Shown: positions 368 to 14,805, counted from the stretch's first letter. The stretch: DNA of 20,000 bases from an uncultured virus (IMG/VR IMGVR_UViG_2563367173_000013) (IMGVR_UViG_2563367173_000013), one strand, 5' to 3'. The notes: a model not told the origin generated them from the letters alone. Program-made: numbers and translations.

Positions 368-1900
368 TTATATATTCAAAAGCGTCCCCGCATATTTCAG
401 CACATTCACTTTCTCCACCGCTTCTCTATTTCCCACAATATTAGCCCCCAACGCACCTGCAATATTCCCCATAAAAGTTCCCAACTCTACAGATGCACCA
501 GCCGCTGCATACAACCCGGCAAGAGAATAAAACGCATCCCCAGCCCCTATCGTATCCTTCACCGATAACGTAAATGCCGGACAATCATATATTTTCTGAT
601 CCTCTATTCCATAAGCACCAAATGACCCTCGTGTAAGCCAGCCATTTCCTCCCAAATATTCACTAAGTTTTTTCAATGCATAATTTTCATTTGCTATATA
701 CATTGGAAACGCAAGCTTTAATTCCTTCTGATCCAACGTAAATACATCAGCTCTATGATACTTTGTAATAACATTCAGTCCATAATTTGTCGAATTTGTC
801 TGACAGTTCAAAACCAGATATTTCGCTCTCTGCTGTATAATTTCTCCCGCTTTTTCATCTATCAGACCATGACCAAAATCACATAAAAACACAACGTCAA
901 ACTCTTCAATTCTATCCAAAAGTCCTCTATAAAATTCTTCTCTGGCCTCTTCTTCATATTCCATTCGTTCCGGAATATTATTAATCGAAAATATTTTTCT
1001 GTATTCTTCTCTTTTTTCATTTCTTGTAAGATAACGGTGTTTTACAATTGTAGGAAATTTATTACTATACGTTAACTTCAAACGCATCTTATCCGCAAGG
1101 CCATCAAAAAGTTTTAATCGCATTTCTTCTTCATTTCCTACAATCGACATTAAAGTCACATTCTCTGTAAAACTGCTAAGATGTCTTGCTACAGCTGCAG
1201 CACCACCAAGATACTCTTCGGAATATTCCAGTTTCGACGAATATCCCATATCCTTGCTCATCAGTCCATGTACAATGCAGTAAGTATATTTATCTATAAT
1301 TATATCTCCTACAACAAGTACCTTGAGCTTTTCGGCTTTTTCTGCATATTTTTTAATGTCTTCCATGGAATATTTTTTTACAAATTGCTCCATATATTGT
1401 ATAACATCTTCCGGAAGTCCGGATAATGCTGTGTTGATCAATTTCGTCGAGCTGAATACCTGTCCTGATGTATATGCTACCTTTCCCCCATGTAACTCAA
1501 CTAACTCTCTTTCAGCAGTAATCTTCCCTGTAATATCTTCACTCTCTTTTGCGTATTCTTCCCCTTTAATATAAAGATCCGGCTCTACGTTTTCTACAAT
1601 ATCATCTACCGTATAACCTTCTGAAAGCATTACATAATCTACATACTCTAATGCTTCCAATACTTTCAGGCGCATCTCGTCATTAAAATATGGTCTCCCA
1701 GGGCCTTTCCGCACAAATTCAGCTGCCGTGATGGACACAACCAAAATGTCCGCCATCTGTTTCGCCTGCTGCAGATGTATAATATGTCCCGGATGTACCA
1801 GATCAAATACACCGTGACAAAGAGCTATCTGCTTGCCTTCTTTTTTTAATTTTGGCCTTATTTGTGTTTTGAACACAAGCTTGTCCACTATTTTTCCCAT
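368..1900 (-). CDS. Bifunctional nucleotidyltransferase (N-term) / PfkB sugar kinase (C-term), HldE/RfaE-like with reversed domain order
   Basis: N-term HGVFDLVHPGH, KGPGRP, KGEEY, FSST; C-term GDIIIDKY, GGAAAVA, TRG, DTIGAGDAF; co-operonic with gmhA/gmhB-like genes. Confidence 0.85.
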   Translation of the reverse strand: MGKIVDKLVFKTQIRPKLKKEGKQIALCHGVFDLVHPGHIIHLQQAKQMADILVVSITAAEFVRKGPGRPYFNDEMRLKVLEALEYVDYVMLSEGYTVDDIVENVEPDLYIKGEEYAKESEDITGKITAERELVELHGGKVAYTSGQVFSSTKLINTALSGLPEDVIQYMEQFVKKYSMEDIKKYAEKAEKLKVLVVGDIIIDKYTYCIVHGLMSKDMGYSSKLEYSEEYLGGAAAVARHLSSFTENVTLMSIVGNEEEMRLKLFDGLADKMRLKLTYSNKFPTIVKHRYLTRNEKREEYRKIFSINNIPERMEYEEEAREEFYRGLLDRIEEFDVVFLCDFGHGLIDEKAGEIIQQRAKYLVLNCQTNSTNYGLNVITKYHRADVFTLDQKELKLAFPMYIANENYALKKLSEYLGGNGWLTRGSFGAYGIEDQKIYDCPAFTLSVKDTIGAGDAFYSLAGLYAAAGASVELGTFMGNIAGALGANIVGNREAVEKVNVLKYAGTLLNI

Positions 1901-1915
1901 TTGCAGTCTATCCTT

Positions 1916-2902
1916 TTATTTTCCAAGATATTTAAACCAATCTTCTGTCGCTTCTCCTATGCTGTCTGGTGTCCATACAGGCGCTTCACGCCAATAATCA
2001 ATATTGTCCAGCACCTTCTTTACGCCTTCCTCGAATGTAACTTTTGCTTTCCATCCCAATATTTGCTCAATCTTGGCAGTGTCCGCAAAGGTGCAATCCG
2101 GTTCTCCCGGCCGCTTTGGAATATGTACAATTTCTCCCTCTAACAACTCACACAAACGATTGACGGAATAAGTTCCTCCACTGCCTACATTGAAAGTTTC
2201 CTGTACTACATCCGACATTGCTGCCGTATAAAATGCATCTGCAATATCAGTCACATATGTGAAATCTCTGGTCTGATTCCCATCTCCCACAACAGTAAAT
2301 GGATTTTCTGCCAACTTTTGTGCCAAAAATACGCCAAACACCGCACCGTATGTTCCTGATGTCCTTGATCTCGTGCCATATACATTAAACAATCTAAGTG
2401 TAATCACCGGCAGGTGATACACCTGTCCCCAATGCAAGACTGTTTCTTCTCCCAGTCTTTTCGTAAGTGCATAAGGATATTGTGGTCTGATTTCTGCTGT
2501 TTCTTTTGTCGGATATTCATCAGGAATCCCATAACAGGAAGAGGATGCTGCATAAACGAGTTTTTTGATTCCCTTGTTTTTAGCACATTCAACTACATTG
2601 AAAGTACCTAGCACATTTGATGAATAATAATCCCATGGTCTCTGAATAGAAGGAACAATATCTGCCAATGCTGCAAAATGAAATACATAATCCACATCAT
2701 TGAAAATCGGTTCTATTTCCTCTTTATTTCGAATATCCATATGATATACCGATAACATCTTATTATTTTTCTGATGATCCAGATTTTCAGGCCGTCCTGT
2801 CGTCCAGTTATCAATTACCCTGACCTCGTGTCCTTCTGCCAGTAATCTATCCACCATATGTGAACCAATAAAACCGCATCCACCTGTTACTAATGATATC
2901 AT
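1916..2902 (-). CDS. NAD-dependent nucleotide-sugar epimerase/dehydratase (extended SDR)
   Basis: TGGCGFIGSH, ASSSCYG, YALTK, RLFNVYG, GDGNQTRDF; GGAGG (2913-2909) favours the ATG at 2902. Confidence 0.9.
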   Translation of the reverse strand: MISLVTGGCGFIGSHMVDRLLAEGHEVRVIDNWTTGRPENLDHQKNNKMLSVYHMDIRNKEEIEPIFNDVDYVFHFAALADIVPSIQRPWDYYSSNVLGTFNVVECAKNKGIKKLVYAASSSCYGIPDEYPTKETAEIRPQYPYALTKRLGEETVLHWGQVYHLPVITLRLFNVYGTRSRTSGTYGAVFGVFLAQKLAENPFTVVGDGNQTRDFTYVTDIADAFYTAAMSDVVQETFNVGSGGTYSVNRLCELLEGEIVHIPKRPGEPDCTFADTAKIEQILGWKAKVTFEEGVKKVLDNIDYWREAPVWTPDSIGEATEDWFKYLGK

Positions 2903-2914
2903 AAGCATCCTCCA

Positions 2915-3448
2915 TCACAATATTTTTATAACATCCGTTAAATCTTCAAAGATGAAATCCGGCTTTACATTCTTCTCCAGCCGCGCTGTTCCATAGCCGG
3001 ATTCCAGCAAAATCGTCCGTATACCTATATTTTGCCCGGCAATGATATCTCCTGCCCTGTCTCCCACCATGTAAGAATGTTCCATATCTATCACAAAATC
3101 CCTACAGGCCATATCAAACATTCCCTTTTGAGGCTTACGACAATTGCAGCCTGCATCCGGATGATGTGGGCAGTAGTACACAGCATCTACCCCGGTTTGC
3201 AATATCAGGTACCGATTCATTTCCTGTAATACTTTTTCTGTAAGTAATCCCCTTGCAATACCACTTTGGTTTGTAATAACAATGGCATAATATCCCTTAT
3301 TATGTATTCTTTTTATACAATCTGCTGCATATGGGAAGATTTTAAAATCTTCCATTACAGTAATATAACTCTTTTCTTCGGTTAAAACTCCATCACGATC
3401 CAAAAATACGGCAGGTTTTAAAAAAACAGACGATTCTTCCATACACAT
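2915..3448 (-). CDS. gmhB: D,D-heptose-1,7-bisphosphate phosphatase-like HAD enzyme
   Basis: FLDRDGVL, ITNQSGIARG, CPHHP...CNCRKP Zn motif, MVGDR. Confidence 0.85.
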   Translation of the reverse strand: MCMEESSVFLKPAVFLDRDGVLTEEKSYITVMEDFKIFPYAADCIKRIHNKGYYAIVITNQSGIARGLLTEKVLQEMNRYLILQTGVDAVYYCPHHPDAGCNCRKPQKGMFDMACRDFVIDMEHSYMVGDRAGDIIAGQNIGIRTILLESGYGTARLEKNVKPDFIFEDLTDVIKIL

Positions 3449-3449
3449 A

Positions 3450-4028
3450 TCAGAATTTTACTCCATCTCTCTCCATAATCATGTCTACAATCTGCTGAAG
3501 TATTAAGTTATGAATGGATTCAACAATTCCATATTTTTTACAGGGAACATATACATTTATATTACCCAATTGTTTTAACTGATTATCTTCTTCAAAACCG
3601 GTAAATGTAATTATTTCTGCTTTCTTTAATTTTGCTGTTTCTACTGCATTGATAATATTTTTTGAATTACCTGAACTGCTAATGGCTACTATTAAATCAT
3701 CTTCTCTAATTAAAAATTGTAACGGTCTTGAAAAGATATATTCATAACCATAGTCATTACCCATACAGGTTGTTACTGCCTGATCATATAGACTATATGT
3801 ATTCATTCCGCCATTTTTCATAAAATCAGCTGTCATATGACTGGCTATCGCAGAACTTCCTCCGTTTCCAATAAAAAACAACTGCGATTGATTTTTTTTA
3901 TGCTTTGTAAACGCATCCAGTAACATCTGAACTGCTTCATTATAATTATCACATAGTTTCCCAGTTCCATTCCAAAATTCAGTTGCTTCCAATTTTCCAA
4001 TTAATTCATTAATATAGCAATTATCCAT
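3450..4028 (-). CDS. gmhA: SIS-domain phosphosugar isomerase, divergent GmhA-like
   Basis: GNGGSSAIASH, GNDYGYEYIFSR, ISSSGNSKNI, TGF motifs; first gene of the operon. Confidence 0.75.
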   Translation of the reverse strand: MDNCYINELIGKLEATEFWNGTGKLCDNYNEAVQMLLDAFTKHKKNQSQLFFIGNGGSSAIASHMTADFMKNGGMNTYSLYDQAVTTCMGNDYGYEYIFSRPLQFLIREDDLIVAISSSGNSKNIINAVETAKLKKAEIITFTGFEEDNQLKQLGNINVYVPCKKYGIVESIHNLILQQIVDMIMERDGVKF

Positions 4029-4114
4029 CTATCATTCTCTCTGTCTTCTTAAATATAAAGCAAGATTATTTAATTAATACATTGATCTTTCAAAAATAGC
4101 AATATTTACCACAT

Positions 4115-4149
4115 ATAAAAAAGTCCATGAATATACTTCATGAACTTTT
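4115..4149 (-). terminator. Intrinsic terminator upstream of the gmhA-like gene
   Basis: Minus strand AAAAGTTCATGAA-GTATA-TTCATGGACTTTT (one G-U pair) ending in a T run. Confidence 0.7.
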
Positions 4150-4228
4150 ATGCCTATTATAACTTCAATTCCTTATATATGCATCCTGCATATCAGCATT
4201 CATCCATGAATATCAGAATTTTTATATT
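4115..4228 (-). ncRNA. Putative sigma28-dependent small RNA or leader RNA with GGA-loop hairpins (CsrA-binding type)
   Basis: Lies between the sigma28 promoter and the terminator; hairpins ATTCA-TGGA-TGAAT (4211-4198) and ATATGC-AGGAT-GCATAT (4193-4177), a further AAGGAA near 4170, and no ORF of meaningful length. Confidence 0.5.
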
Positions 4229-4233
4229 ATAAC

Positions 4234-4261
4234 ATATCGGCAATAACCCTGTAAATCTTTA
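4234..4261 (-). promoter_or_regulatory. sigma28 (FliA/SigD) promoter
   Basis: TAAA (4261-4258)-N16-GCCGATAT (4241-4234) in an intergenic region; matches the B. subtilis sigmaD consensus. Confidence 0.8.
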
Positions 4262-4304
4262 GATAACAATTTCTGTTTCCTTTATTTTACATGAAACTAC
4301 TGAT

Positions 4305-6041
4305 TTATATCTTTCTGTCAAAATTTTCTTTTCCAATCAATACCCTATTCCCACAAAAAGCAAACCCATACTTTCGTATACGCCCTCTCTCAATTCCTTT
4401 CCGAATCAAAATCTCCTCATACCGCTTCTTCTCTATCTGCATTAACGCAGCGTTCACCGTATCCTCCAGCGCTTTTTCCCCATGCTCTTGATCCTGCACC
4501 TTAAATTCCAAAATAAACGCATTATCATTTTGTTTCTTTGGCTCAAACATTACGTCATACCTTCCAAATCCACTTTCTCTGTTAGAAGTTATCACATATC
4601 TGTCATTCAGCTCAATCATCAGTCCCAGAACAAAACCATGATAAAAACATTCCGGCTCACTAACCGACGGCTTCTTTCCCGTATCAAAACAACTGAATGT
4701 TCCAAGCGCTACTTTATTCATATATATGTTCATTGCGCTTACATCGTTTTTAAGAAATGCCTTAATAAAATCATTATAATCTGATATTTGTCCGACAAAC
4801 CACCCATGTATCATTCTGCCAAACATCAATTTTACTTCCAGATTGGTAATCGCCAGTTCATATTTAAGTACATGTGTAGTAAATCCGACAGGATTTTGTT
4901 CTTCCACATTCAAAACTTTCAGATATCCACTTGCCAGCAAAAGTCCCCAGATCGCAGACTCGTCGTCGTTAAGCATGTTATACGCAACCTGTTCATCAAT
5001 AAATGTTTCAAAATGTCCACCTGAAAGAAGCTGTTCAAATGACTGCTTAAGATCTCGCGACCCCTTTTGAATTAATTTTCCAATGAAATCATTGGAACTT
5101 GTATTTGCCCAATAAGTACGCAATTTTCCTGTATCCAGATAATTGATGACAGACCATGGATTATAAATATCCGTTTTATTTCCAAATGTATAACCGTCAT
5201 ACCATAGTTTTACTTTTGATTGTTCATCAGACATTCCAAATTGCTTCAATGCAGCAAAAACTTCTTCTTCTGTAAATCCAAAACTATCAGCATATTCATC
5301 AGACGTCGTTGTAATCACTTTCAGATTGTTGAGATCCGAAAAAACAGATTCTTTACTTACTCGCGTTATCCCGGTCATAACCGACCGATCCATATACGGA
5401 TTTGTCTTAAATGTGGAATGAAACAAACTTCTGATAAATTTCGACAATTGATCCCAATATCCATGAACATATGCTTCCTGCATTGGAGTATCATATTCAT
5501 CCAGTAAAATAATTACTTTCTTTTTGTAGTAACGAGAAAGAAAGTCTGACATCTTGTGAATTGCCCATACTGCTGTTGTTTCTTTCATCTCACTGTTTAC
5601 ACTGCGAAAGTACATCTTTTCATTTTCCGTTAACAGATCCCCTTCAAGCAAAAAAATATTTTTATTATATAAATCCTCTATAATCCAATTCACAGACTGC
5701 CTGATCTTTTCATAATCTGTTTCCTTCACATTTGCAAACGACAGACTTATTACCGGATAAGATCCCTGTAGTGTACGATAATTTTCATCTTTCCATATGG
5801 AAAATTTTTGAAACAGTTCGCTTCGCCCGGCATACTTTAATGAAAAAAATTTTTCCAGCATACTCATATTCAAAGTTTTTCCAAATCTTCGTGGACGGGT
5901 AATTAATGTAACAATATCTTTACTCTCCCACCATTCTTTAATAAACATTGTCTTATCAATATAAAAATTGTCATCCAAAACCAACTGCTCAAAATCCTGA
6001 TGACCAATCCCTACCACTTTTTTTACCGTACACTCACCCAC
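4305..6041 (-). CDS. AAA-ATPase-like protein with C-terminal PD-(D/E)XK nuclease domain (DUF1703/PDDEXK_9 type)
   Basis: RPRRFGKT Walker A, IILLDEYDTP Walker B, YNPWS, SNRESGFGRYD...ILEFK, ALMQIEKKRY; GGAGGTG (6053-6047) favours the GTG at 6041. Confidence 0.9.
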   Translation of the reverse strand: MGECTVKKVVGIGHQDFEQLVLDDNFYIDKTMFIKEWWESKDIVTLITRPRRFGKTLNMSMLEKFFSLKYAGRSELFQKFSIWKDENYRTLQGSYPVISLSFANVKETDYEKIRQSVNWIIEDLYNKNIFLLEGDLLTENEKMYFRSVNSEMKETTAVWAIHKMSDFLSRYYKKKVIILLDEYDTPMQEAYVHGYWDQLSKFIRSLFHSTFKTNPYMDRSVMTGITRVSKESVFSDLNNLKVITTTSDEYADSFGFTEEEVFAALKQFGMSDEQSKVKLWYDGYTFGNKTDIYNPWSVINYLDTGKLRTYWANTSSNDFIGKLIQKGSRDLKQSFEQLLSGGHFETFIDEQVAYNMLNDDESAIWGLLLASGYLKVLNVEEQNPVGFTTHVLKYELAITNLEVKLMFGRMIHGWFVGQISDYNDFIKAFLKNDVSAMNIYMNKVALGTFSCFDTGKKPSVSEPECFYHGFVLGLMIELNDRYVITSNRESGFGRYDVMFEPKKQNDNAFILEFKVQDQEHGEKALEDTVNAALMQIEKKRYEEILIRKGIERGRIRKYGFAFCGNRVLIGKENFDRKI

Positions 6042-6077
6042 AAAGCCACCTCCAGCTTCTCTCAATCCGAAGTATTA

Positions 6078-6198: not shown

Positions 6199-6369
6199 TT
6201 ATTCACTTTCTGATCGTGAAGCCATTTTTATAAGACCTCGCATATATGCCTGAACAAGTTTTTGATTCTCCTCAGTTAAAAGATGATATTCAGCTATCAG
6301 CTGTTGATCGGAAACTGTCAATTGTTTCACTTCCACGTTTTTTTCATTACCGCATTCATATTCTCTCAT
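6199..6369 (-). CDS. 56-aa HTH-less paralog of the XRE C-terminal domain (putative antirepressor 1)
   Basis: RBS AAGGAG (6386-6381); MREYECGNEKNVEVKQLTVSDQQLIAEYHLLTEENQKLVQAYMRGLIKMASRSESE; 24/35 identical to the 8533-8718 product by manual alignment. Confidence 0.85.
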   Translation of the reverse strand: MREYECGNEKNVEVKQLTVSDQQLIAEYHLLTEENQKLVQAYMRGLIKMASRSESE

Positions 6370-6392
6370 TGTGTAATTTTCTCCTTCTCATT

Positions 6393-6456
6393 TGTATTAT
6401 ATTTTATATATTAATATATATTATAATTTTCCAAAAGATGTTAATATGTATTATAT
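6393..6456 (-). promoter_or_regulatory. Conserved upstream element, copy 1 (two ATATAATACA boxes 54 bp apart)
   Basis: TGTATTATAT on + at 6393-6402 and 6447-6456; the intervening sequence is similar to 8742-8806. Confidence 0.6.
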
Positions 6457-6593
6457 ATTAATATTTATATGTAATGCAATCTGACTTCCGAATCCGAATC
6501 TTATCATACGGATGTATTTTTGAAATTTTAATTGCAGCTATTTGTTACGATATGATAATATAATTCATATGAATCATCACGGAGGAAAAACAT

Positions 6594-7340
6594 ATGAATT
6601 CCAAAGATCATACAAGAACATATACCGTTATTCTTTCCGGCGGCATCGGCTCTCGATTAAAAGGAATAGATATTCCTAAACAGTATTATAAAATCTGCGG
6701 AAGAACGATTCTGAGCTACTGTCTGGAACAAATAGAACAAACGGAATGTATCAATGGCTACATCGTCATTGCTGTGGCAGAATGGCAGGACTTTATCTTA
6801 CAGGAAATAAAACAACTGCCGGCTACCGCATCCACAGGCTCAGCTGCATCTAAATTTCTGGGATTTGCTTTACCGGGTAAAAATCGACAGCAGTCTATCC
6901 TGCATGGACTGCAAAGTCTGAAAACAACTGCAAAAGATAACGATATTGTGTTAATTCAGGACGCTGTCAGACCGCTTACCTCCAAAACCCTGATTGTAAA
7001 CTGCATACAGGCTGCCGCAGGTGCGGACGGTGCAATGCCGATACTCCCAATGACAGATACCGTCTATTATAGTAAAGACGGAAAACAAGTAGATGCATTG
7101 TTAGATCGGGATAAAATTATTGCAGGACAGGCTCCGGAAGCATTTGTCTTTGGAGCATATCTGCGAGCAAATGAATCTTTATCAGAGGCTGAAATGCTGG
7201 CTGTCAGAGGCAGCACGGAACCGGCTATAAAGGCCGGCATGCGCATTGCATTATTGGATGGAGACGAACGGAATTTAAAAATTACAACCGAAAAAGATTT
7301 AAAACAATTTGAAAAACTATTGGAGGACCGCAGGATATGA
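6594..7340 (+). CDS. IspD/TarI-family cytidylyltransferase (probable alditol-phosphate cytidylyltransferase)
   Basis: LSGGIGSR...PKQY, RQQSI, QDAVRP, QAPEAF, NLKITT; GGAGG RBS; overlaps the next gene (ATGA). Confidence 0.88.
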   Translation: MNSKDHTRTYTVILSGGIGSRLKGIDIPKQYYKICGRTILSYCLEQIEQTECINGYIVIAVAEWQDFILQEIKQLPATASTGSAASKFLGFALPGKNRQQSILHGLQSLKTTAKDNDIVLIQDAVRPLTSKTLIVNCIQAAAGADGAMPILPMTDTVYYSKDGKQVDALLDRDKIIAGQAPEAFVFGAYLRANESLSEAEMLAVRGSTEPAIKAGMRIALLDGDERNLKITTEKDLKQFEKLLEDRRI

Positions 7341-8422
7341 AAGCTTATTCACTAAAAGGAATTGGACAGTTAGAATATGTAGATGTTCCAATGCCTGTCA
7401 TGCAAAGCGGCTGGGCTTTGGTACAGGTAGGCGCCGCCGGTATTTGCGGTTCCGATATACCTAGAATTTTCAGTACCGGTACATATCATTTTCCAACGAT
7501 TCCAGGCCATGAATTTTCCGGGAGAGTCGTTGATGTATTTGACAGGCAAAATCAACGTTGGATCGGCAAACGGGTTGGTATTTTCCCTCTCATTCCATGT
7601 AAAAAGTGTATGTCCTGCCAAAACAAAGAGTATGAAATGTGCAGCGATTACGATTATCTTGGTTCCAGACGAGACGGAGGCTTTGCGGAATACACGGCCG
7701 TTCCGGTATGGAATATGATCGAACTACCGGATAATATAAGTATGAACGAAGCTGCCATGCTGGAACCCGCAGCCGTTGCTCTCCATGCGGTAAGAAGAAT
7801 ACGGCTGCCGCACAACAGTGTTGTTGCGTTACTTGGTCTTGGAACAATTGGAATCATGATTACACAGTGGCTTCACATTTTTGGAATACATAAAGTCTAT
7901 ACTACCGGACATAATCCCGGTCATGGCTCACTCATGCAGCAGATTGTATCGGCGGACTATGAATACATCAATATTGATAATTCTCAAAACAAGGATATGC
8001 AAACCGTATCGGAAAACGAGGCTGTCTCTCAGATCATAGACAGTACAAAAGGGCAAGGTGTATCGATCGCTGTCGATTGTATCGGAACATCCGCTTCTTT
8101 GGACCAATGCATAAAATGTGTAAGGCCAGGCGGACAGATTTTAATCGTAGGAAATCCAAAAGAAAATATATTTTTAGACAAAGATATTTACTGGAAAATA
8201 CTGCGTAAACAAATTCATCTTACAGGAACATGGAACTCCTCCTTTTTTCATGATGCTAAAGACGACTGGCATCAGGTAATCGCGTCCGCAAGCAATAGAA
8301 CTTTCCAAATGTCTGCATTGATTACGCACCGGCTTTCTTTTGACAAGCTGCACCTGGGATTAGATATCGCGAGAAGCCATAATCAGTATCATAACAAAAT
8401 TATGATTTGCAATGATCTTTAA
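7337..8422 (+). CDS. Zn-dependent medium-chain sugar-alcohol(-phosphate) dehydrogenase (GatD/TarJ-like)
   Basis: GICGSD, GHEFSG, CKKCMSC...C structural Zn site, GLGTIG. Confidence 0.88.
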   Translation: MKAYSLKGIGQLEYVDVPMPVMQSGWALVQVGAAGICGSDIPRIFSTGTYHFPTIPGHEFSGRVVDVFDRQNQRWIGKRVGIFPLIPCKKCMSCQNKEYEMCSDYDYLGSRRDGGFAEYTAVPVWNMIELPDNISMNEAAMLEPAAVALHAVRRIRLPHNSVVALLGLGTIGIMITQWLHIFGIHKVYTTGHNPGHGSLMQQIVSADYEYINIDNSQNKDMQTVSENEAVSQIIDSTKGQGVSIAVDCIGTSASLDQCIKCVRPGGQILIVGNPKENIFLDKDIYWKILRKQIHLTGTWNSSFFHDAKDDWHQVIASASNRTFQMSALITHRLSFDKLHLGLDIARSHNQYHNKIMICNDL

Positions 8423-8431
8423 ATTATCAAA

Positions 8432-8471
8432 GCCTCAATCCATCACAATACTGTTTTTCATGGATTGAGGC
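8432..8471. terminator. Hairpin between convergent genes, likely bidirectional terminator
   Basis: GCCTCAATCCAT (8432-8443) / ATGGATTGAGGC (8460-8471), perfect 12-bp arms. Confidence 0.7.
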
Positions 8472-8532
8472 ACATTTGTTTCTGTTTATCCCATTTCAGA
8501 AATCATGAACAGAAACACACTTGAAAGCAGCT

Positions 8533-8718
8533 CTAATTTTCACCGGCTTGGTTACCAAATGAACCAGAAGCTTTTAACAATCCATGCACATATGCTTTCA
8601 CGAGTTTTTGATTATCATTTGGCAATTGATGAAATTCTGCTATCAGTTGCTGATCAGCGATTGTCAGCTGCTTTACTACAGCTCCTTCTTCATAACCGTA
8701 TTTCAAGTCTTCCTTCAT
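8533..8718 (-). CDS. 61-aa HTH-less paralog of the XRE C-terminal domain (putative antirepressor 2)
   Basis: RBS AAGGAGG; EEGAVVKQLTIADQQLIAEFHQLPNDNQKLVKAYVHGLLK is 25/40 identical to the XRE segment EEGTAVKKLTIADQRLLADFHRLPREEKKLLTAYMQGLLK. Confidence 0.88.
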   Translation of the reverse strand: MKEDLKYGYEEGAVVKQLTIADQQLIAEFHQLPNDNQKLVKAYVHGLLKASGSFGNQAGEN

Positions 8719-8741
8719 TGTATTGCATCAACCTCCTTTTA

Positions 8742-8806
8742 TGTATTATATTCCTATATTTTAATATAAAAAAATTGTTACAAAAAGATAGTAAAATGTA
8801 TTATAT
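8742..8806 (-). promoter_or_regulatory. Conserved upstream element, copy 2 (two ATATAATACA boxes 55 bp apart)
   Basis: TGTATTATAT on + at 8742-8751 and 8797-8806. Confidence 0.6.
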
Positions 8807-8837
8807 GTTTTTGTTGAGGGCATTCCATACTGTCGGA

Positions 8838-11126
8838 TCAATATTGTACATCCTGCAGCATTACCGGCACCATACGGTCCAGACATGCCTGAGCCGCATA
8901 TCCCCGGTCTCCATAATAACCATCACATAATTGTATCGCCTCATTTATATGATCGGAAGTTCCCAGAATACCCCATCCTTGTTTTTCATACTGTGTGACT
9001 AATTCATGGTACGCCGCCCAGATTTTCTCATATTTTTTCTCAACGATCTGATTTTTTCGCCCAAATGGAATCCAGATCAAAGCGATTTCCTCACAGTTAT
9101 CCCAAAACAGTTCAAGTACACGCTTCATCTTTTCCAGCATTTTACCTTCATAATGAAATAATACACTTATGTCCGTTCCATATAATAGTACTTTTTTCAG
9201 GTTTCCATCTTGTTTCTTTAATACAGACATCCATTGTTCCGGCAAATGTATCAAATCCTTTTTCTCTGTTCTTTTATCCATTTTAGGAGAACCCATTCCC
9301 AGTATTTTTTCTTCCCATTGTGCTCTCATTTTTCCACCTGCGAAATCAGTTAAAATATCAATGTAAATTTGTCGCATCTTTTCGGATTGTACGACCACTT
9401 TATCGGCATGTATTACGCCGGGAACCGCGCAGCTGTATCGTATATTGGCTACTGCTCTCTCATCCTTTTCATCAATTTCTTTTACAAAATAAGGTGGAAT
9501 ATAAACAAGCTGACACGCATATTGTTTCAAATTAGGCGAATAAAAAAACGGATGTACGCTCATAGCGCTATCATATTCATCGTATGGATTTTGTATATAA
9601 ATAACATCCAGATCATGGCTTGAAAAATCAAATGTATCATATCTTATGACAGATACATAATGAGGAAATTCATTTATTTCATTCTGCAGTTCTCCCGCGG
9701 TTCCGTCCGGTTTTTTATAAAAATATGGAATTGGTATTACATAAGCTATGCAGTCCCGATCTGACTGAGCCGCTTCCCAAATGCTTTCCAGATGTTCCCA
9801 CAAAGATGCATGATACGGTAAAAATGCCACTTCATAGCGCAGCTCTATTTCTTCTCTTATTTTTGATTCTATCAGTTCCGGCTGACTTTTTATCATCTCC
9901 AGAAGTGCTTCCATTTCCGATTTATTTTGATTTAAGACAGCTTCATGCATTCGATATATCAACTCACAAAAATTTTCAAGGCTTCTAACCGATTGACTCC
10001 CTTCGCCTGTTTTTTCCTCCAGCAAAGTTCCAATCATAATAGCTGCTTCCTGATAGTTCGTTAATATGTCTACCGTTTCCTGAATATCCTTGCTCCGGTT
10101 TTTCAACTGATCATGTGCATTTCCTATTAATTTTAAAAACTGTTTCACACGTTGTTTTAACGTATTTTTGCTTAAAACCTTTTGATCTTCTTCTGAAAAC
10201 GTATATACATAAGGGTTTTTACCAATCGCCTGAACTAAAGCTGTTTCCTGCTTTCGAAAAATTGGATAGTCATGCATGCCCGCACTTTTTACATTATTCA
10301 TGTAATCCCCAAATTTTTTCCACAACACACAGTCATACATGGCAGGTACAGGAACCATAAACCGATCAAATTTCAGGCTTTCGGTTCTGTCATACCATGA
10401 TTTTTGCCACTTATATTGTTTATTTTTGATCCATAACGGCATTACTGTAATTTCTTCCGCTTCCTGCCCGGAATACATAGAAAAAAGACTTTCTTCCAGA
10501 CGGAGCATTTGATTCAGCCACGGGCGATTATAATCAATTCGAACATGAAGCATTTCTTCAATCATACCGGTCTGTTCTACCAGCTTATCTCCATCTACTT
10601 TCCCATCCAAAACCGATACAATCAGATCATCTATTGTATTTAGAACAAGGTATAAAAATTCACTTTCCTCAGCTGAAGACGGCACATAATCCATAACAAA
10701 TAAATCAATTCCCATACCATATGGACATCCATGATATTTATTCAAAAAATCAGGTTTAAAATTAATCTCTCTGCTGTTAATAATTCTCGTAAATAATTCG
10801 GTATATGAATCATCCGTCCGTATATTCCTTAAGCAATAGCCTCCTGCAATTTTTTGCAGTTCTTTTTCCGCAACAGCAATAAATCGGTTATAATCGTCTC
10901 GCATCATGCATATATCCAGATCATCATCCCATGGAATAAATCCCCGATGGCGCACAGCTCCTAAGAGTGTTCCGGCATCTGCATAATAGGAGATACTGTG
11001 CATCCGGCATATGGAATCAACATCTTTTAATATTTCCAGCTGTGCTGCCCATGACCTTTTCATCATACTTGTCACGAAAAATCCTTCTATTACTTCGCTT
11101 TCAAAGTAGTTATCCTGAAATTCCAT
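8838..11126 (-). CDS. LicD-family phosphotransferase fused to a C-terminal domain homologous to the upstream 11160-12515 protein
   Basis: GTLLGAVRHRGFIPWDDDLDICMMRDDY, IDLFVMD; C-term FLPYHASLWEHLESIW, IYIQNPYD, LVYIPPYF, ADKVVVQSE, GSPKMD, YYGD; GAGGA RBS favours the ATG at 11126. Confidence 0.85.
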   Translation of the reverse strand: MEFQDNYFESEVIEGFFVTSMMKRSWAAQLEILKDVDSICRMHSISYYADAGTLLGAVRHRGFIPWDDDLDICMMRDDYNRFIAVAEKELQKIAGGYCLRNIRTDDSYTELFTRIINSREINFKPDFLNKYHGCPYGMGIDLFVMDYVPSSAEESEFLYLVLNTIDDLIVSVLDGKVDGDKLVEQTGMIEEMLHVRIDYNRPWLNQMLRLEESLFSMYSGQEAEEITVMPLWIKNKQYKWQKSWYDRTESLKFDRFMVPVPAMYDCVLWKKFGDYMNNVKSAGMHDYPIFRKQETALVQAIGKNPYVYTFSEEDQKVLSKNTLKQRVKQFLKLIGNAHDQLKNRSKDIQETVDILTNYQEAAIMIGTLLEEKTGEGSQSVRSLENFCELIYRMHEAVLNQNKSEMEALLEMIKSQPELIESKIREEIELRYEVAFLPYHASLWEHLESIWEAAQSDRDCIAYVIPIPYFYKKPDGTAGELQNEINEFPHYVSVIRYDTFDFSSHDLDVIYIQNPYDEYDSAMSVHPFFYSPNLKQYACQLVYIPPYFVKEIDEKDERAVANIRYSCAVPGVIHADKVVVQSEKMRQIYIDILTDFAGGKMRAQWEEKILGMGSPKMDKRTEKKDLIHLPEQWMSVLKKQDGNLKKVLLYGTDISVLFHYEGKMLEKMKRVLELFWDNCEEIALIWIPFGRKNQIVEKKYEKIWAAYHELVTQYEKQGWGILGTSDHINEAIQLCDGYYGDRGYAAQACLDRMVPVMLQDVQY

Positions 11127-11159
11127 TTTTTCCTCTTTCCACAAATTCACAATCTGCTT

Positions 11160-12515
11160 TTAAACAATATTTACATCCTGTATCATAATAGGTTTTCCAG
11201 TCAGACGATATAATTCAACCAAAGAACTTGGATCCCCATAATAAGCATCGGAAATTGCAATCGCTCTATGCAGCTCTGACGTATCATCATAAATGCCCCA
11301 ATTTTCATTTCGATATAGCTCTACAATTTCATAATACTGTTCCAGTAAATCCGGCCGCATTGCCTCACAGGTTTCTTTGCTAAATGGATGCGGACGCCAA
11401 AGCAGAACAACATCTTTGCGATCTTTTATCAACTTCAGTACGGACCGAATCTTTTGCAGTGCCTTCTCTTTTTCCTTCAACAAAACTACTAAGCTGGTAT
11501 TATACAGTATAACTTTCTTTTTTTCTCCGTCTTCTCCTTCCATTTTTTCAATCCAGTCAGATGGTATTTTTACATTTTCTCTTGTTGTACTTAATACTTT
11601 ATCATATTTCGGAGAACCCAACGCTAAAAACTTTTCTTCCGCACATCCAAAATAACCCTTACAGTTATTCTCTTCTTCAAATTTATGAAATTCATTGATA
11701 TAAACTTCTCGGGCCTTTTCTGACTGAACAATTACTTTATCCGCATACATCGTTCCGGGCTGAACACATAAATGTTCCGGAACGGAATCATCCATACATA
11801 CAAAATAAGGAATATACACCAGAAGTTCCGTATACTTTTTCAACACTTTTGCATAAAAATCCGGATGTACCGTTGTCACTTTGTTTGTATTATCATACGG
11901 ATTATGAATATATATTACATCGGGATGATGTTCTTCCACATCATAATCTTCCCAATCTACGATTGAAACATATTCCGGTAATTCATCACCTTCATAATGC
12001 ATTGCCATGACAGTTCCATCCTGATGTTTATCAAAATATGGAATCGGAACTACATATGCATCACAATCTTTGTCAGCCTCCGCTGCCATCCATACACTTT
12101 CCAGGCTATCCCACATGGAAGCCTTGTATGGAAAAAAAGCTGCCTCTATCTTTTCTTCTACTTTATTTTTTACGTATTCTTTCACCTGGTTTATACACCG
12201 ATCCATACCACGACGTATCGGCTGCATGATGTGCTTTGCTTCGTTATACTTTAACTGTTTGCCGTATTTTGATGTCTTTACAGCCATCTCATAGACAATT
12301 TCACAATATTCTTCCAGGCTTTTTACCGCATCTTTATGAGGTGCCGTATCCTGTTCTAACATATCACCTGCAAGAATCGCCATTTCCTGACATTGTACCA
12401 AAAGACTCTGCACCTTATTATAATTTCCTTTCAAAAATGCCTGTTCTATCTGTCTGTGATTTTCTGCAAAAAGTAAAAATTCTTCCATTAACCTTTTCTT
12501 TTTATATCTACGCAT
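11160..12515 (-). CDS. Putative CDP-alcohol glycerophosphotransferase-like / GT-B protein
   Basis: FFPYKASMWDSLESVW, IYIHNPYD, ADKVIVQSE, LGSPKYD, ILYNTS, LLWRPHP, SDAYYGDPSS (resembles TagF-like motifs); GGAG RBS favours the ATG at 12515 (track start 12533). Confidence 0.65.
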   Translation of the reverse strand: MRRYKKKRLMEEFLLFAENHRQIEQAFLKGNYNKVQSLLVQCQEMAILAGDMLEQDTAPHKDAVKSLEEYCEIVYEMAVKTSKYGKQLKYNEAKHIMQPIRRGMDRCINQVKEYVKNKVEEKIEAAFFPYKASMWDSLESVWMAAEADKDCDAYVVPIPYFDKHQDGTVMAMHYEGDELPEYVSIVDWEDYDVEEHHPDVIYIHNPYDNTNKVTTVHPDFYAKVLKKYTELLVYIPYFVCMDDSVPEHLCVQPGTMYADKVIVQSEKAREVYINEFHKFEEENNCKGYFGCAEEKFLALGSPKYDKVLSTTRENVKIPSDWIEKMEGEDGEKKKVILYNTSLVVLLKEKEKALQKIRSVLKLIKDRKDVVLLWRPHPFSKETCEAMRPDLLEQYYEIVELYRNENWGIYDDTSELHRAIAISDAYYGDPSSLVELYRLTGKPIMIQDVNIV

Positions 12516-12567
12516 TTCCTGATCTCCAATCATTCCTCAGACTGTTCTGCCATTTTTCATACATAAA

Positions 12568-12576
12568 ATTATAACA
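12568..12576 (-). promoter_or_regulatory. Extended -10 promoter for the 12515/LicD genes
   Basis: TGTTATAAT on the minus strand just downstream of a terminator. Confidence 0.5.
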
Positions 12577-12613
12577 CGTGAAAGACAATTTGTATTCAAT
12601 AATTGTAAAAAAC

Positions 12614-12663
12614 AAAAAAATGTATATTCGGAAAACGCAATACTTTTCCGAATATACATTTTT
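12614..12663 (-). terminator. Intrinsic terminator of the XRE gene
   Basis: Perfect 20-bp arms AAAAATGTATATTCGGAAAA (12616-12635) / TTTTCCGAATATACATTTTT (12644-12663), 8-nt loop. Confidence 0.85.
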
Positions 12664-12727
12664 CTGTTACGCTTCCTGACACTACATCAGATAAAACCTG
12701 TACTGTTTTAATATCTATAATATGATA

Positions 12728-13159
12728 TTATACTTCCTCTGTTTTATCGCCATTCTCATCCGAGCCGTTTGTTGAATCAGCTTCATCTGAAATATCTGTC
12801 CCCATTTGCATATCGGTTTCTTCTATGTTAGAAACAGCAATTTTAAGAAGTCCCTGCATATATGCAGTTAAAAGCTTCTTTTCTTCTCTCGGAAGTCGAT
12901 GAAAATCTGCCAATAGCCGTTGATCTGCTATCGTAAGTTTCTTTACCGCTGTTCCTTCCTCATCAAAAAATTCCGACAATGTAATGCCTAATCCATCACA
13001 AACACGCATAAGCGTAGATACTGATGGCACATTATTGCGGTGAAACGTGTTGCTCAAGGTAGAATAACTAATATCGGCTTCTTTTGCCAGACGATATAGT
13101 GTCCAGTTTCTCTCTTCTAAAAGCTGCGTTACCTTACTTAATACGTATTCTTCCTTCAT
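12728..13159 (-). CDS. XRE-family HTH transcriptional regulator with C-terminal helical domain and acidic tail
   Basis: WTLYRLAKEADISYSTLSNTFHRNNVPSVSTLMRVCDGLGITLSEFF; GAGGAGG RBS favours the ATG at 13159. Confidence 0.92.
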   Translation of the reverse strand: MKEEYVLSKVTQLLEERNWTLYRLAKEADISYSTLSNTFHRNNVPSVSTLMRVCDGLGITLSEFFDEEGTAVKKLTIADQRLLADFHRLPREEKKLLTAYMQGLLKIAVSNIEETDMQMGTDISDEADSTNGSDENGDKTEEV

Positions 13160-13658
13160 TGTATCATTCAATCCTCCTCGTTTGTATTTTTGCAGCACGG
13201 AAACATCTGCTTTTCTTAATTCCTTTTATCTGTTGTAATGATAATGATTAAGTGACAAATTGTGCTGCGGTTATTTATTCTTTATCGTATCCATACTTCC
13301 TTTTCACGAAAGGTTCAAAAGCCGTTTAGAAGCTCATAAACCTCTTTTAACGGAAAATATTAAGTATAAATACAGATATTTCACACTTATTACGAAACAT
13401 ATCGTTCCATATTTGATCATCGCTTATTGTATAATTATTGTTTTCTCAAATGTATAATATAGTTATATTGTAATAAATACCGAATGTTCCCAATAGATGT
13501 TAATGAGTATCATACAATCAGCTCTCATATGAATTATGCATTATTTTATCATTAAATGAAAAATAATACAATGCACAATACGACTATTTTTAAGAAATTA
13601 TAACATATTAATACCCATTTCGACAAGATATGCTACAAATATATTATAAACATTATTC

Positions 13659-13707: not shown

Positions 13708-14805
13708 ATGAATAACAGCAAATCATTAAACTCACATACCACCTCATCGGAGCCTTCCGATAAGGTTAACAAAAAGAAAAAAGCAGCTGGCATAGAAATT
13801 TTGGCAAATAAAGATGATATAGAGCCTACTTTGATAAAAAAGGCTAATATTCGGTATCAGGACAGTTTTTTCAGAAGATTATTTAAAGAACCAAAATATA
13901 GGAAGGCATTATATTTGATTTTGCATCAGGAAGACATAAATGTTGAAGATACGGAATTTGAAAATATAGAACTTGATAATATTCTGAATGTTGATATTTA
14001 CAATGATATTTGCTTTACGGTCCGAAACCGATTGATTATATTACTCGAACATCAATCAACATTGAATCAAAATATGCCTATTCGGATACTTTTATATCTT
14101 GCAGAAGAATATAAACGTCTTCTTACGCGAAGTGAATTTTCTTCTGCTCTTTATGCGGCACCGCTTGTGAAAATACCAAGACCGGAGTTTTATATCGTAT
14201 ATACCGGTACGGAACCATGTGCTTCCGTTATGAAATTATCCGATGCTTTTTTAGATTGCACTTCTTCCGGCATCAATGCCGAAAGTAAAATTGAACTGAC
14301 CATCCCGGTATTGACTGCGACCGATTCAAAAGGCATTCTTGCCGAATATTTTGATATTATAAACTATATAAAATCAGAAACCAGGTACTGCGGCTCTCTT
14401 GAGACAGCCATAAGCCATGCTATTTTGAAATATCAGTCCGGATACGAAATATCAGAATTTATCAGAAATCAGAAAGGGGTGTATGATACATTGTTTGAGC
14501 AAATCAGTAGAGAAGAATTATTAGCGAGACAGCTTGAAGCCAATGCAAGAGTCCTGACCCAACAGGTGACTGAACAGGTGACCCAGCAGGTAACCCAGCA
14601 GGTAACCCAGCAGGTGACTGAACAAGTGACCCAGCAGGTAACCCAGCAGGTAACCCAGCAGGTAACCCAGCAGGTGAAAAAAAATGATATTTTAATATCT
14701 TATAAAATGTTACTTGAAGCTGGCATTGCACCGGAAAATGCCCTGCAATCTATAGTACGGAATTATAACTTGGAAGAAACGGAAGTACGGAAAATTTTAG
14801 AATAA
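13708..14805 (+). CDS. Rpn/YhgA-like PD-(D/E)XK nuclease (putative transposase family) with C-terminal 4-aa repeat
   Basis: YQDSFFRRLF, YNDICF, LLEHQSTLNQNMPIRILLY, KIPRPEFYIVYTG, MKLSDAF. Confidence 0.8.
   Translation: MNNSKSLNSHTTSSEPSDKVNKKKKAAGIEILANKDDIEPTLIKKANIRYQDSFFRRLFKEPKYRKALYLILHQEDINVEDTEFENIELDNILNVDIYNDICFTVRNRLIILLEHQSTLNQNMPIRILLYLAEEYKRLLTRSEFSSALYAAPLVKIPRPEFYIVYTGTEPCASVMKLSDAFLDCTSSGINAESKIELTIPVLTATDSKGILAEYFDIINYIKSETRYCGSLETAISHAILKYQSGYEISEFIRNQKGVYDTLFEQISREELLARQLEANARVLTQQVTEQVTQQVTQQVTQQVTEQVTQQVTQQVTQQVTQQVKKNDILISYKMLLEAGIAPENALQSIVRNYNLEETEVRKILE
14557..14676 (+). repeat. 10 x 12-bp coding tandem repeat (consensus ACCCAGCAGGTA/G; T[Q/E]QV)
   Basis: Ten adjacent units read directly; units 2 and 6 are the ACTGAA (TEQV) variants. 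Confidence 0.95.

Follow-up and report, generated by a model that had tools for sequence, protein, structure and literature searches.

We analyzed a 20,000-nt stretch of DNA recorded as that of an uncultured virus (IMG/VR IMGVR_UViG_2563367173_000013), hereafter "the window". Its minus strand carries the gene of a 143-aa regulator of the XRE family and two short open reading frames, ORF1 and ORF2, whose products resemble the regulator only beyond its helix-turn-helix (HTH) domain, i.e. in a C-terminal region that we call the "hook". A first-pass annotation of the window had proposed that the two small proteins act on the regulator in the manner of SinI and SlrA on SinR, in a locus devoted to glycosylation. 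We describe below the three genes, their relatives, the promoter/leader module that they have in common and their surroundings, and we weigh this proposal against other readings.

Three paralogous genes on the minus strand

The three genes, and the parts of the XRE protein, are the following:

6199-6369, minus strand: ORF1, 56 aa, hook-only (HTH-less) paralog of the XRE C-terminal domain
8533-8718, minus strand: ORF2, 61 aa, second hook-only paralog, of a lineage other than that of ORF1
12728-13159, minus strand: XRE-family regulator, 143 aa (Pfam HTH_26/HTH_3, AlphaFold2 (AF2) model, orthologues in the genus)
12968-13153, minus strand: HTH of XRE, residues ~3-64
12824-12961, minus strand: conserved two-helix hook of XRE, residues ~67-112
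residues 113-143 of XRE, minus strand: acidic, disordered tail

The XRE frame is open from a GTG at 13198, and a start at the ATG of 13159 yields a protein of 143 aa, in agreement with every orthologue. Residues 11-66 match HTH_26 (1.6e-9, 38.3 bits for a cut-off of 22) and HTH_3 (2.3e-7, 31.2 bits for a cut-off of 23), above the Pfam gathering score for the XRE/Cro-C1 HTH family (PF01381, PF13443). For ORF1 and ORF2 the Pfam scan returned no family and no HTH. At the start of XRE there is also a mini-ORF of three codons (ATG ATA CAA TGA, 13157-13168, minus strand), which begins 5 nt after a GGAGG and whose stop codon overlaps the XRE ATG. The Shine-Dalgarno spacing fits this mini-ORF better than the XRE start (13 nt), a hint of translational coupling.

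ORF1 and ORF2 have 26 identities over 45 positions (BLASTP, E 1e-18). ORF2 aligns with residues 67-110 of XRE (26/44 identities, E 3e-18) and ORF1 with residues 63-108 (22/46, E 3e-15), and 19 columns are invariant in the alignment of the three. The first-pass annotation had located the three ORFs at these same places on the minus strand; its counts of 25/40 identities for ORF2-XRE and 24/35 for ORF1-ORF2 are close to ours, and the start context that it had described, ACAATGA(A/G)(G/A)GAA, is found in all three genes. Judged by these alignments, ORF1, ORF2 and the post-HTH part of XRE are clear paralogs, far beyond chance. The closest genome (G001, 6.7 Mb, with 100% of the window's sampled words) contains only these three copies of the hook, plus one match at E 1.8.

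An exhaustive profile search of 1.84 billion representatives gave 17 hits, of which 13 were examined: five are hook-only proteins (53-74 aa), three have two hooks in tandem and no HTH (93-115 aa) and five bear an HTH. The four left out (P0018, P0019, P0022 and P0023; 294-1012 aa) matched by several short stretches, with E values from 1.8e-5 to 7.7e-5. Four relatives of 69 aa, 67-70% identical, came from a word-based search, and one of these occurs on 36 contigs. The exact ORF1 protein is present on 54 contigs. Across 13 small proteins that are 38-59% identical to ORF2, 10 columns are invariant. Four candidates for longer, fused relatives of ORF2 were not significant, in a word-based search that failed to recover even the window's own XRE. 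A metagenome scan with the small-protein alignment left one weak locus out of 385 pattern matches, and the top score in the ESM Atlas was 0.83, under the lead threshold of 0.9.

In a tree of 59 columns, rough because short, the 30 XRE hooks form one clade (94/99) and the small proteins fall outside it in several groups, ORF2 with P0010, P0008, P0031 and P0033 (94/89) and ORF1 in a group of its own lineage (88/88). Matching longest-contig sizes suggest that members of both small lineages share a contig in each of two further organisms (17,954 and 23,714 nt), and that a contig of 2,309 nt carries two small proteins together with an XRE at 98% identity. A 7.7-kb stretch is partly present in 17 runs; the mouse-gut metatranscriptome X1 has 0.90 of its sampled words, a figure that expresses word sharing only.

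Matches to the hook profile occur in 21 of the 22 genomes of the genus, and weak ones in 2 of 39 genomes of other genera. HTH-less forms appear, among the examined loci, in G001 (two), G013 (one), G021 (one) and G010 (one, double-hook). Three of the 39 profile matches (G010:C51, G011:C67 and G019:C60) lie outside the examined loci; their open frames of 123-146 aa suggest that they bear an HTH. In G010 (L036 8282-13271) the 115-aa double-hook gene stands 274 nt upstream of XRE, and the gene of a 1276-aa flagellin comes directly after XRE; the upstream side of this locus has RgpF, a GT2 gene and two radical-SAM genes. G006, G007 and G011 have tandem pairs of HTH-bearing genes, XRE-XRE'. In these pairs (L011, L013 and L017, in G007, G006 and G011 respectively) an XRE' of 116-119 aa with a basic, Cys-containing tail is directly upstream of the acidic-tailed XRE, a layout that recalls SinR/SlrR or the SinR/SinR' of C. 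difficile.

Selection on the small genes was estimated from the proportions of nonsynonymous (pN) and synonymous (pS) differences over a 35-codon core of ORF1, ORF2, the small genes of G013 and G021 and the XRE hook (10 pairs, 2000 codon bootstraps). The pN/pS of the core is 0.17-0.33, with a pS of 0.53-0.83, and for nine of the ten pairs pN equalled or exceeded pS in 0-2 of the 2000 bootstraps. The remaining pair (G013 vs G021) has almost no differences and is therefore uninformative (245/2000). ORF1 compared with the G013 and G021 small genes gives 0.21-0.28, and ORF2 compared with the other small genes 0.17-0.22. Over the whole length, the ratio of substitution rates (dN/dS) is 0.14-0.27 for ORF1 vs ORF2 and for either of them vs the G013 and G021 small genes. 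That of the G013-G021 pair is 1.16, because the tail of the G021 gene is frameshifted after the core. Relative to the G013 gene (L035 10022-10231), the G021 gene (L034 8599-8778) has undergone a 1-nt frameshift, so that a short tail of other sequence takes the place of the acidic one (59 vs 69 aa); the core is unaffected.

The sense frame is the only one open in all four small genes compared as DNA. An antisense ORF of 141 aa (8505-8930, plus strand) runs across ORF2 and the module upstream of it; since ORF1 and the small genes of G013 and G021 have no corresponding open frame, it is probably no gene. From the conservative nature of the substitutions the first-pass annotation had argued for selection and not decay. 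The low pN/pS of the core, the single frame open in four of four genes and the diverged small homologues of other organisms uphold this argument, and on the selection and conservation data we reject a reading of ORF1 and ORF2 as decaying genes or pseudogenes. On this comparative evidence the small ORFs are genuine, long-maintained genes under purifying selection.

The upstream module and the origin of the small genes

A module of ~125 nt is conserved upstream of the XRE genes in 15 species of the genus, where it normally abuts the XRE start codon. As read in the alignment, it is composed of an upstream block, a very conserved 14-nt block of the TTAACATCTTTTGG type, a semi-conserved TTgnCA placed ~16 nt before a near-invariant TATAAT, and TACAAT-like repeats; it also has a purine-rich leader and the ACAATGAGAGAAGA start. 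The assignment of -35 and -10 elements is likewise a reading of the alignment. A profile was built on 20 upstream regions, 19 from the 15 species and one being the window's XRE-distal copy. By this profile (nhmmer) there are exactly three full modules in the window, and none in 39 kb of flanks:

6361-6491, minus strand: module copy 1 (nhmmer E 4.9e-18), directly upstream of ORF1, intergenic with the divergent tarI
8708-8835, minus strand: module copy 2 (nhmmer E 1.4e-18), directly upstream of ORF2, starting 3 nt past the stop of the LicD-family gene
13417-13539, minus strand: module copy 3 (nhmmer E 5.6e-21), 258-380 nt upstream of the XRE start
13190-13416, minus strand: insert of ~230 nt between module copy 3 and the XRE ribosome-binding site (blastn gap 13190-13426, 237 nt, extending ~10 nt into the module end)

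Copies 1 and 2 are 79% identical (BLAST, E 3.9e-7). A wider regulon was not found in G001: copy 1 used as a BLAST query gives only copy 2 as a significant match, the other 34 (E>=1e-3) being AT-rich noise, and a degenerate 18-nt pattern of the module matched copy 1 only. The start codon that belongs to the module has decayed in copy 3 (ACAATG to ACAATA). For G021 and G013, the module abuts the XRE leader and its distance to the XRE start is ~30 nt, which include a second ribosome-binding site; the insert (13190-13426) is absent from the same place in both, and is present in a single copy in G001. Its predicted RNA fold has a z of -3.1, none of 200 shuffles being equally stable, and the insert may constitute a structured 5' leader of XRE. 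It belongs to no Rfam family, and Rfam gave 0 families over the whole window.

The small proteins keep the first four to five residues of XRE (MRE-/MKE-) and resume at XRE residue ~63. Thus the small genes share with the XRE gene its first codons, its leader and its module in full, which identifies them, by sequence, as derived from a complete XRE gene that lost codons ~5-62, i.e. the HTH, in frame. The duplication with in-frame loss of the HTH that had been proposed from the start context alone is thereby strengthened, since what was retained extends to the entire module conserved in the genus.

One may ask whether the module, rather than the protein, is what was duplicated. A module controlled by XRE would have been copied before new transcription units, and the truncated coding remnant would be a functionless by-product. 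Such a promoter capture fits well with the intact copying of module and leader, with the string of same-strand genes that follows ORF1 without a terminator-like site between, with the decayed start codon of the module upstream of XRE and with the C-terminal tail of the G021 small gene, frameshifted relative to that of G013. But it does not account for the strong amino-acid constraint of the core, for a frame kept open in four of four DNA copies, or for ten columns left invariant among proteins at 38-59% identity. ORF2, moreover, faces a convergent gene and heads no operon, and the downstream genes differ between G001 and G021. We therefore hold promoter capture to be very improbable.

Architecture of the regulator and known systems

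The AF2 model of XRE (32-sequence alignment; mean predicted local distance difference test score, pLDDT, of 75) comprises a five-helix HTH (3-64), a linker, two helices (77-84(88) and 91-118) and an acidic disordered tail with a pLDDT <50. Its first hit by Foldseek is SinR of the SinR-SinI complex (1b0n_A; E 7.8e-3, 100 columns, root-mean-square deviation (rmsd) 8.9). Among the 50 entries listed by VIA-align only two span both domains, 1b0n_A (Z 9.2, 93 aligned, rmsd 6.1, model residues 5-120) and ClgR 3f51_B (Z 8.6). The 20 entries above 1b0n_A cover model residues 1-72 only, and matches to residues 1-70 have a Z of 9-11. By sequence, the HTH matches SinR with an E of 1.5e-7, second after prophage Lp1 protein 11 in the PDB search. 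The structural scores being weak, the match to SinR holds at the level of architecture only; at that level the model supports an XRE made of an HTH and a C-terminal two-helix hook, as in SinR.

The HTH by itself is an ordinary member of the short XRE/Cro-C1 regulators (HTH_3, HTH_26), such as prophage Lp1 protein 11 (3b7h) and the C-proteins of restriction-modification systems. With these generic regulators the structural matches cover model residues 1-70 only, whereas the conserved hook and its free-standing copies set the window family apart.

For the published systems we draw on passages of three sources. In B. subtilis, residues 74-111 of SinR and 3-39 of SinI provide two helices each, which hook into an intermolecular four-helix bundle; the core residues of the bundle are conserved between the two proteins and the 1:1 complex loses DNA binding (PMC3163267). 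The same passages describe mixed complexes of SinR and SlrR, which can acquire new targets (PMC3163267). SinR' of C. difficile antagonises SinR (PMC5864091). In Bacillus phages, AimX heterodimerises with the XRE-type AimC and blocks its oligomerisation, for which the authors liken it to SinI (bioRxiv 10.1101/2025.11.23.689978).

The system of the window resembles SinR/SinI in several respects. Both have an XRE-type HTH protein with a C-terminal two-helix hook, and an HTH-less protein (~57 aa in Bacillus) that resembles the hook alone, here with E values of 3e-18 and 3e-15 to XRE residues 63-110. Both, if SlrR/SlrA are included, have more than one small paralog as well as HTH-bearing paralogs (SlrR; the XRE-XRE' pairs of G006, G007 and G011). 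Both are linked to surface polysaccharide or motility, in our case by location, i.e. a glycan island and, in G010, the flagellin gene after XRE. They differ by the hook of the window, which has no detectable sequence relation to Pfam SinI or to any PDB chain, by the long acidic disordered tail of XRE, variable in length, and by the double-hook forms among the XRE relatives. The candidate antagonists of the window are dispersed 4-6 kb away, while those of Bacillus form a sinI-sinR operon, and they carry the regulator's own promoter module, while the Bacillus antagonist is under Spo0A control.

With C. difficile SinR/SinR' the likeness is that of a Clostridia paralog which antagonises an XRE-type SinR, motility being among the traits concerned (PMC5864091, in the passages used), and the XRE-XRE' pairs resemble it; SinR' nevertheless keeps its HTH and is co-operonic, unlike the HTH-less, dispersed candidates of the window, and the two are likened by description. 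With AimC/AimX the presumed likeness is a small helical protein that attaches to an XRE-type repressor at its C-terminal oligomerisation domain and thereby stops oligomerisation and DNA binding (bioRxiv 10.1101/2025.11.23.689978). But AimX is a three-helix protein, not presented as a paralog of AimC in the passages behind this comparison, and it belongs to a phage lysis-lysogeny context, whereas in the ~59 kb that we examined we saw no phage genes.

A candidate feedback switch in a glycan island

The neighbours of the three genes in the window are the following:

6594-8422, plus strand: tarI/tarJ-like pair, divergent from ORF1; cytidylyltransferase (6594-7340; Pfam IspD) and Zn-dehydrogenase (7337-8422; ADH_N/ADH_zinc_N)
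8838-11150, minus strand: LicD-family protein (Pfam LicD, 2.2e-34), between XRE and ORF2
11160-12533, minus strand: glycerophosphotransferase-like protein (Glyphos_transf 2.4e-4, under cut-off), between XRE and ORF2
12616-12663, minus strand: terminator-like hairpin (20-pair stem, T run), just past the XRE gene
368-6065, minus strand: genes downstream of ORF1; AAA-ATPase_like/PDDEXK_9 (4305-6065), then heptose-nucleotide genes (SIS, HAD, epimerase, HldE-like)

The product of 6594-7340 matches the NCBIfam D-ribitol-5-phosphate cytidylyltransferase subfamily at 4.7e-34, under its cut-off. The tarI/tarJ-like arrangement is also present in G013 and G021, where the small gene has the position of ORF1, divergent from this pair, with the LicD-family and glycerophosphotransferase-like genes (8838-12533 in the window) in synteny beyond. 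In G021 the small gene is 7.4 kb from XRE, with neighbours as in the window. The position of ORF2 is empty in both genomes. Because of the hairpin that follows it, XRE is probably monocistronic. There is no terminator-like site between ORF1 and 6065, and the genes of 368-6065 are not syntenic in G021. The tarI/tarJ-like pair and the LicD-family and glycerophosphotransferase-like genes are possible regulatory targets.

The window belongs to a glycan island of at least ~59 kb; in G013 and G021, as in G001, the location is likewise a glycan island. That of the window includes CDP-ribitol-type and heptose-nucleotide genes, LicD, Glyco_tranf_2_5, Glyco_trans_1_2, DUF4422, radical-SAM/SPASM proteins, methyltransferases and an aminotransferase. 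Flagellin genes are 25-55 kb away in G001. These neighbouring gene families point to a possible role in flagellin or surface glycosylation. The island also contains nuclease-type genes, one directly downstream of ORF1 (4305-6065, minus strand; a 586-aa AAA-ATPase_like + PDDEXK_9 protein) and one divergent from the XRE upstream region (13708-14805, plus strand; 365 aa, weak Rpn/Transposase_31-like matches). In G021 (L034 4556-8436) an 891-aa LRR-Roc-COR GTPase-like protein and a Uma2-family nuclease lie beside the hook-only gene, where the window has the heptose genes.

Two other identities of the locus were considered and rejected. A toxin-antitoxin system with XRE as a HipB-like antitoxin does not agree with the score of the HipB model (16.3 bits for a cut-off of 79), nor with neighbours that are glycan enzymes and a terminator. 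As for a prophage or an AimC-AimX-like phage module, no phage structural or integrase families were found in 17 proteins of the window and 24 of the flanks (PHROGs not searched).

By analogy with SinR/SinI, SlrR/SlrA and AimC/AimX, the hook would be the oligomerisation domain of XRE. The hook-only proteins would pair with XRE in mixed complexes having one DNA-binding head or none, and the occupancy of its operators by XRE would decrease (dominant-negative antagonism). Since the module is conserved even in species that have XRE alone, it is likely the auto-operator of XRE; and since the same cis module stands on all three genes, XRE probably sets the level of its own antagonists. XRE and its antagonists would then form a double-negative loop, i.e. 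a feedback switch. Its outputs would be the transcription units that start at a module or beside one: the tarI/tarJ pair divergent from ORF1, the genes that follow ORF1 and perhaps other parts of the surface-glycan island. That the small proteins are SinI-like antagonists of XRE, acting through the hook in such a module-based feedback, is the interpretation that we favor, if only slightly.

The hook could instead serve to dock some third partner, e.g. a sensor, a component of the flagellar or glycosylation machinery, or a sigma or anti-sigma factor. The small proteins would compete for this partner, or signal to it, and never touch XRE. In agreement with this, polar residues (T, D, Q, H, K, G) are among the most conserved of the hook, besides apolar ones. 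The differences between lineages that are kept across species (QLI/NQ-type in the small proteins vs QLL/DK-type in XRE) and the double-hook proteins, which could be bivalent adaptors, also agree with docking. However, the solved two-domain XRE proteins of similar size self-associate by their C-terminal helices, at least SinR and AimC in the passages cited (PMC3163267; bioRxiv 10.1101/2025.11.23.689978), and no conserved candidate partner gene accompanies XRE across the contexts examined. Docking of a third partner seems to us unlikely.

Alternatively, the small proteins would not be antagonists but positive or specificity-changing subunits of XRE, which for instance stabilise or re-space its dimers on the direct repeats of the module, or homodimers unrelated to XRE. 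Two distinct small lineages are apparently kept together in at least three organisms, which suggests non-redundant roles beyond a simple titration, and the passages on SinR-SlrR describe mixed complexes that gain targets (PMC3163267). Against this, a hook-only subunit brings no DNA contact, so that the simplest effect of mixing is a loss of avidity, and the characterised HTH-less mimics that we found in the literature (SinI, AimX) are all inhibitors. We regard a positive role as quite unlikely.

Several observations weigh against antagonism of XRE by the small proteins, or limit its scope. The self-association of the hook is assumed from the analogy, the binding of a third partner being an alternative. 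No Foldseek match reaches E<=1e-3, and the rmsd over both domains is 6-9 A. The hook has no sequence match in the PDB, the best (E 0.29) being an unrelated enzyme. The double-hook protein of G010 (115 aa), folded with its three relatives, gave four helices with a pLDDT of 56 and a predicted template modelling score (pTM) of 0.30, and is unusable. Pfam SinI (PF08671) matches none of 13 small proteins even at E<=10, and the XRE protein has no SinI match at E<=0.01. A six-frame scan of G001, G013 and G021 with the SinI model gave nothing at the three loci and no match over the cut-off, compared with 1 of 14 control genomes over it. In architecture the system is thus Sin-like, but by sequence it is no member of the Sin family. 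This agrees with the wording of the first-pass annotation, for which the system was analogous, and not necessarily homologous, to Sin: an HTH and a two-helix hairpin are modelled and the SinI Pfam model is unmatched.

The scan also revealed, at ~45 places of G001 (e.g. C1:725713-725766, and C1:4621531-4621578 in L048), an ORF of 134-136 aa with identical sub-threshold SinI matches (24.7 or 18.4 bits for a cut-off of 31.4, with a 28-position model). It is probably a gene of a repeated mobile element; an IS66-family transposase is at L048 383-1282.

The gene arrangement raises further difficulties for the antagonist interpretation. ORF2 and ORF1 are 4.0 and 6.4 kb from XRE and form no operon with it. 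The small ORFs had been described as intact and endowed with ribosome-binding sites. The GGAG/GGAGG motifs are indeed there, but at 11-13 nt from the ATG of ORF1 and ORF2, which is long compared with the 7 nt of the genus consensus leader. A simple sigma-70 scan found 33 sites, no enrichment over the 31 +/- 7.5 of shuffles. In 17 of the 21 matching genomes of the genus only HTH-bearing forms are present, so that in most relatives the regulator functions with no antagonist. The XRE gene of three other species is in a conserved HAD - PBP1 - AP_endonuc_2 neighborhood, followed by VanZ/MCP, RecQ, or DUF6465/ABC/polysaccharide genes. Being present in 21 of 22 genomes and having PBP1, AP-endonuclease-like, RecQ, VanZ or MCP neighbors elsewhere, XRE is not a strict glycan-locus regulator; it is a genus-wide regulator, and no gene dedicated to the glycan locus.

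Going further, the SinI principle would have evolved a second time, or diverged beyond recognition, in this mouse-gut 'Eubacterium' genus. An autoregulated XRE would have spawned hook-only, double-hook and HTH-bearing paralogs, all reusing its operator/promoter module. The result would be a feedback switch, possibly bistable, which diversifies surface or flagellin glycosylation within the population, the hook-only genes being portable "de-repressor cassettes" that travel with glycan islands. We put this forward as a tentative and rather doubtful extension.

By analogy, then, the locus looks like a sequence-distinct version of the known SinR/SinI-type regulatory design. We found no account of such a system in gut anaerobes of the Lachnospiraceae type in the searchable literature, outside which most subscription journals lie. 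Mimics of the oligomerisation domain of a transcription factor are a known switch design (SinI/SinR, AimX/AimC) of which few families are known, and the window offers a compact, testable case: a regulator of 143 aa, two candidate antagonists of 56-61 aa and three copies of a 125-nt cis module. Should the mechanism fail, the small proteins remain a conserved, unexplained family. If it is true, the design can arise simply by deletion of the HTH from a duplicated autoregulated gene, and unannotated ORFs of less than 70 aa would be flagged as regulators. It would also give a handle on how gut commensals regulate or diversify the surface and flagellar glycans that are seen by the host immune system.

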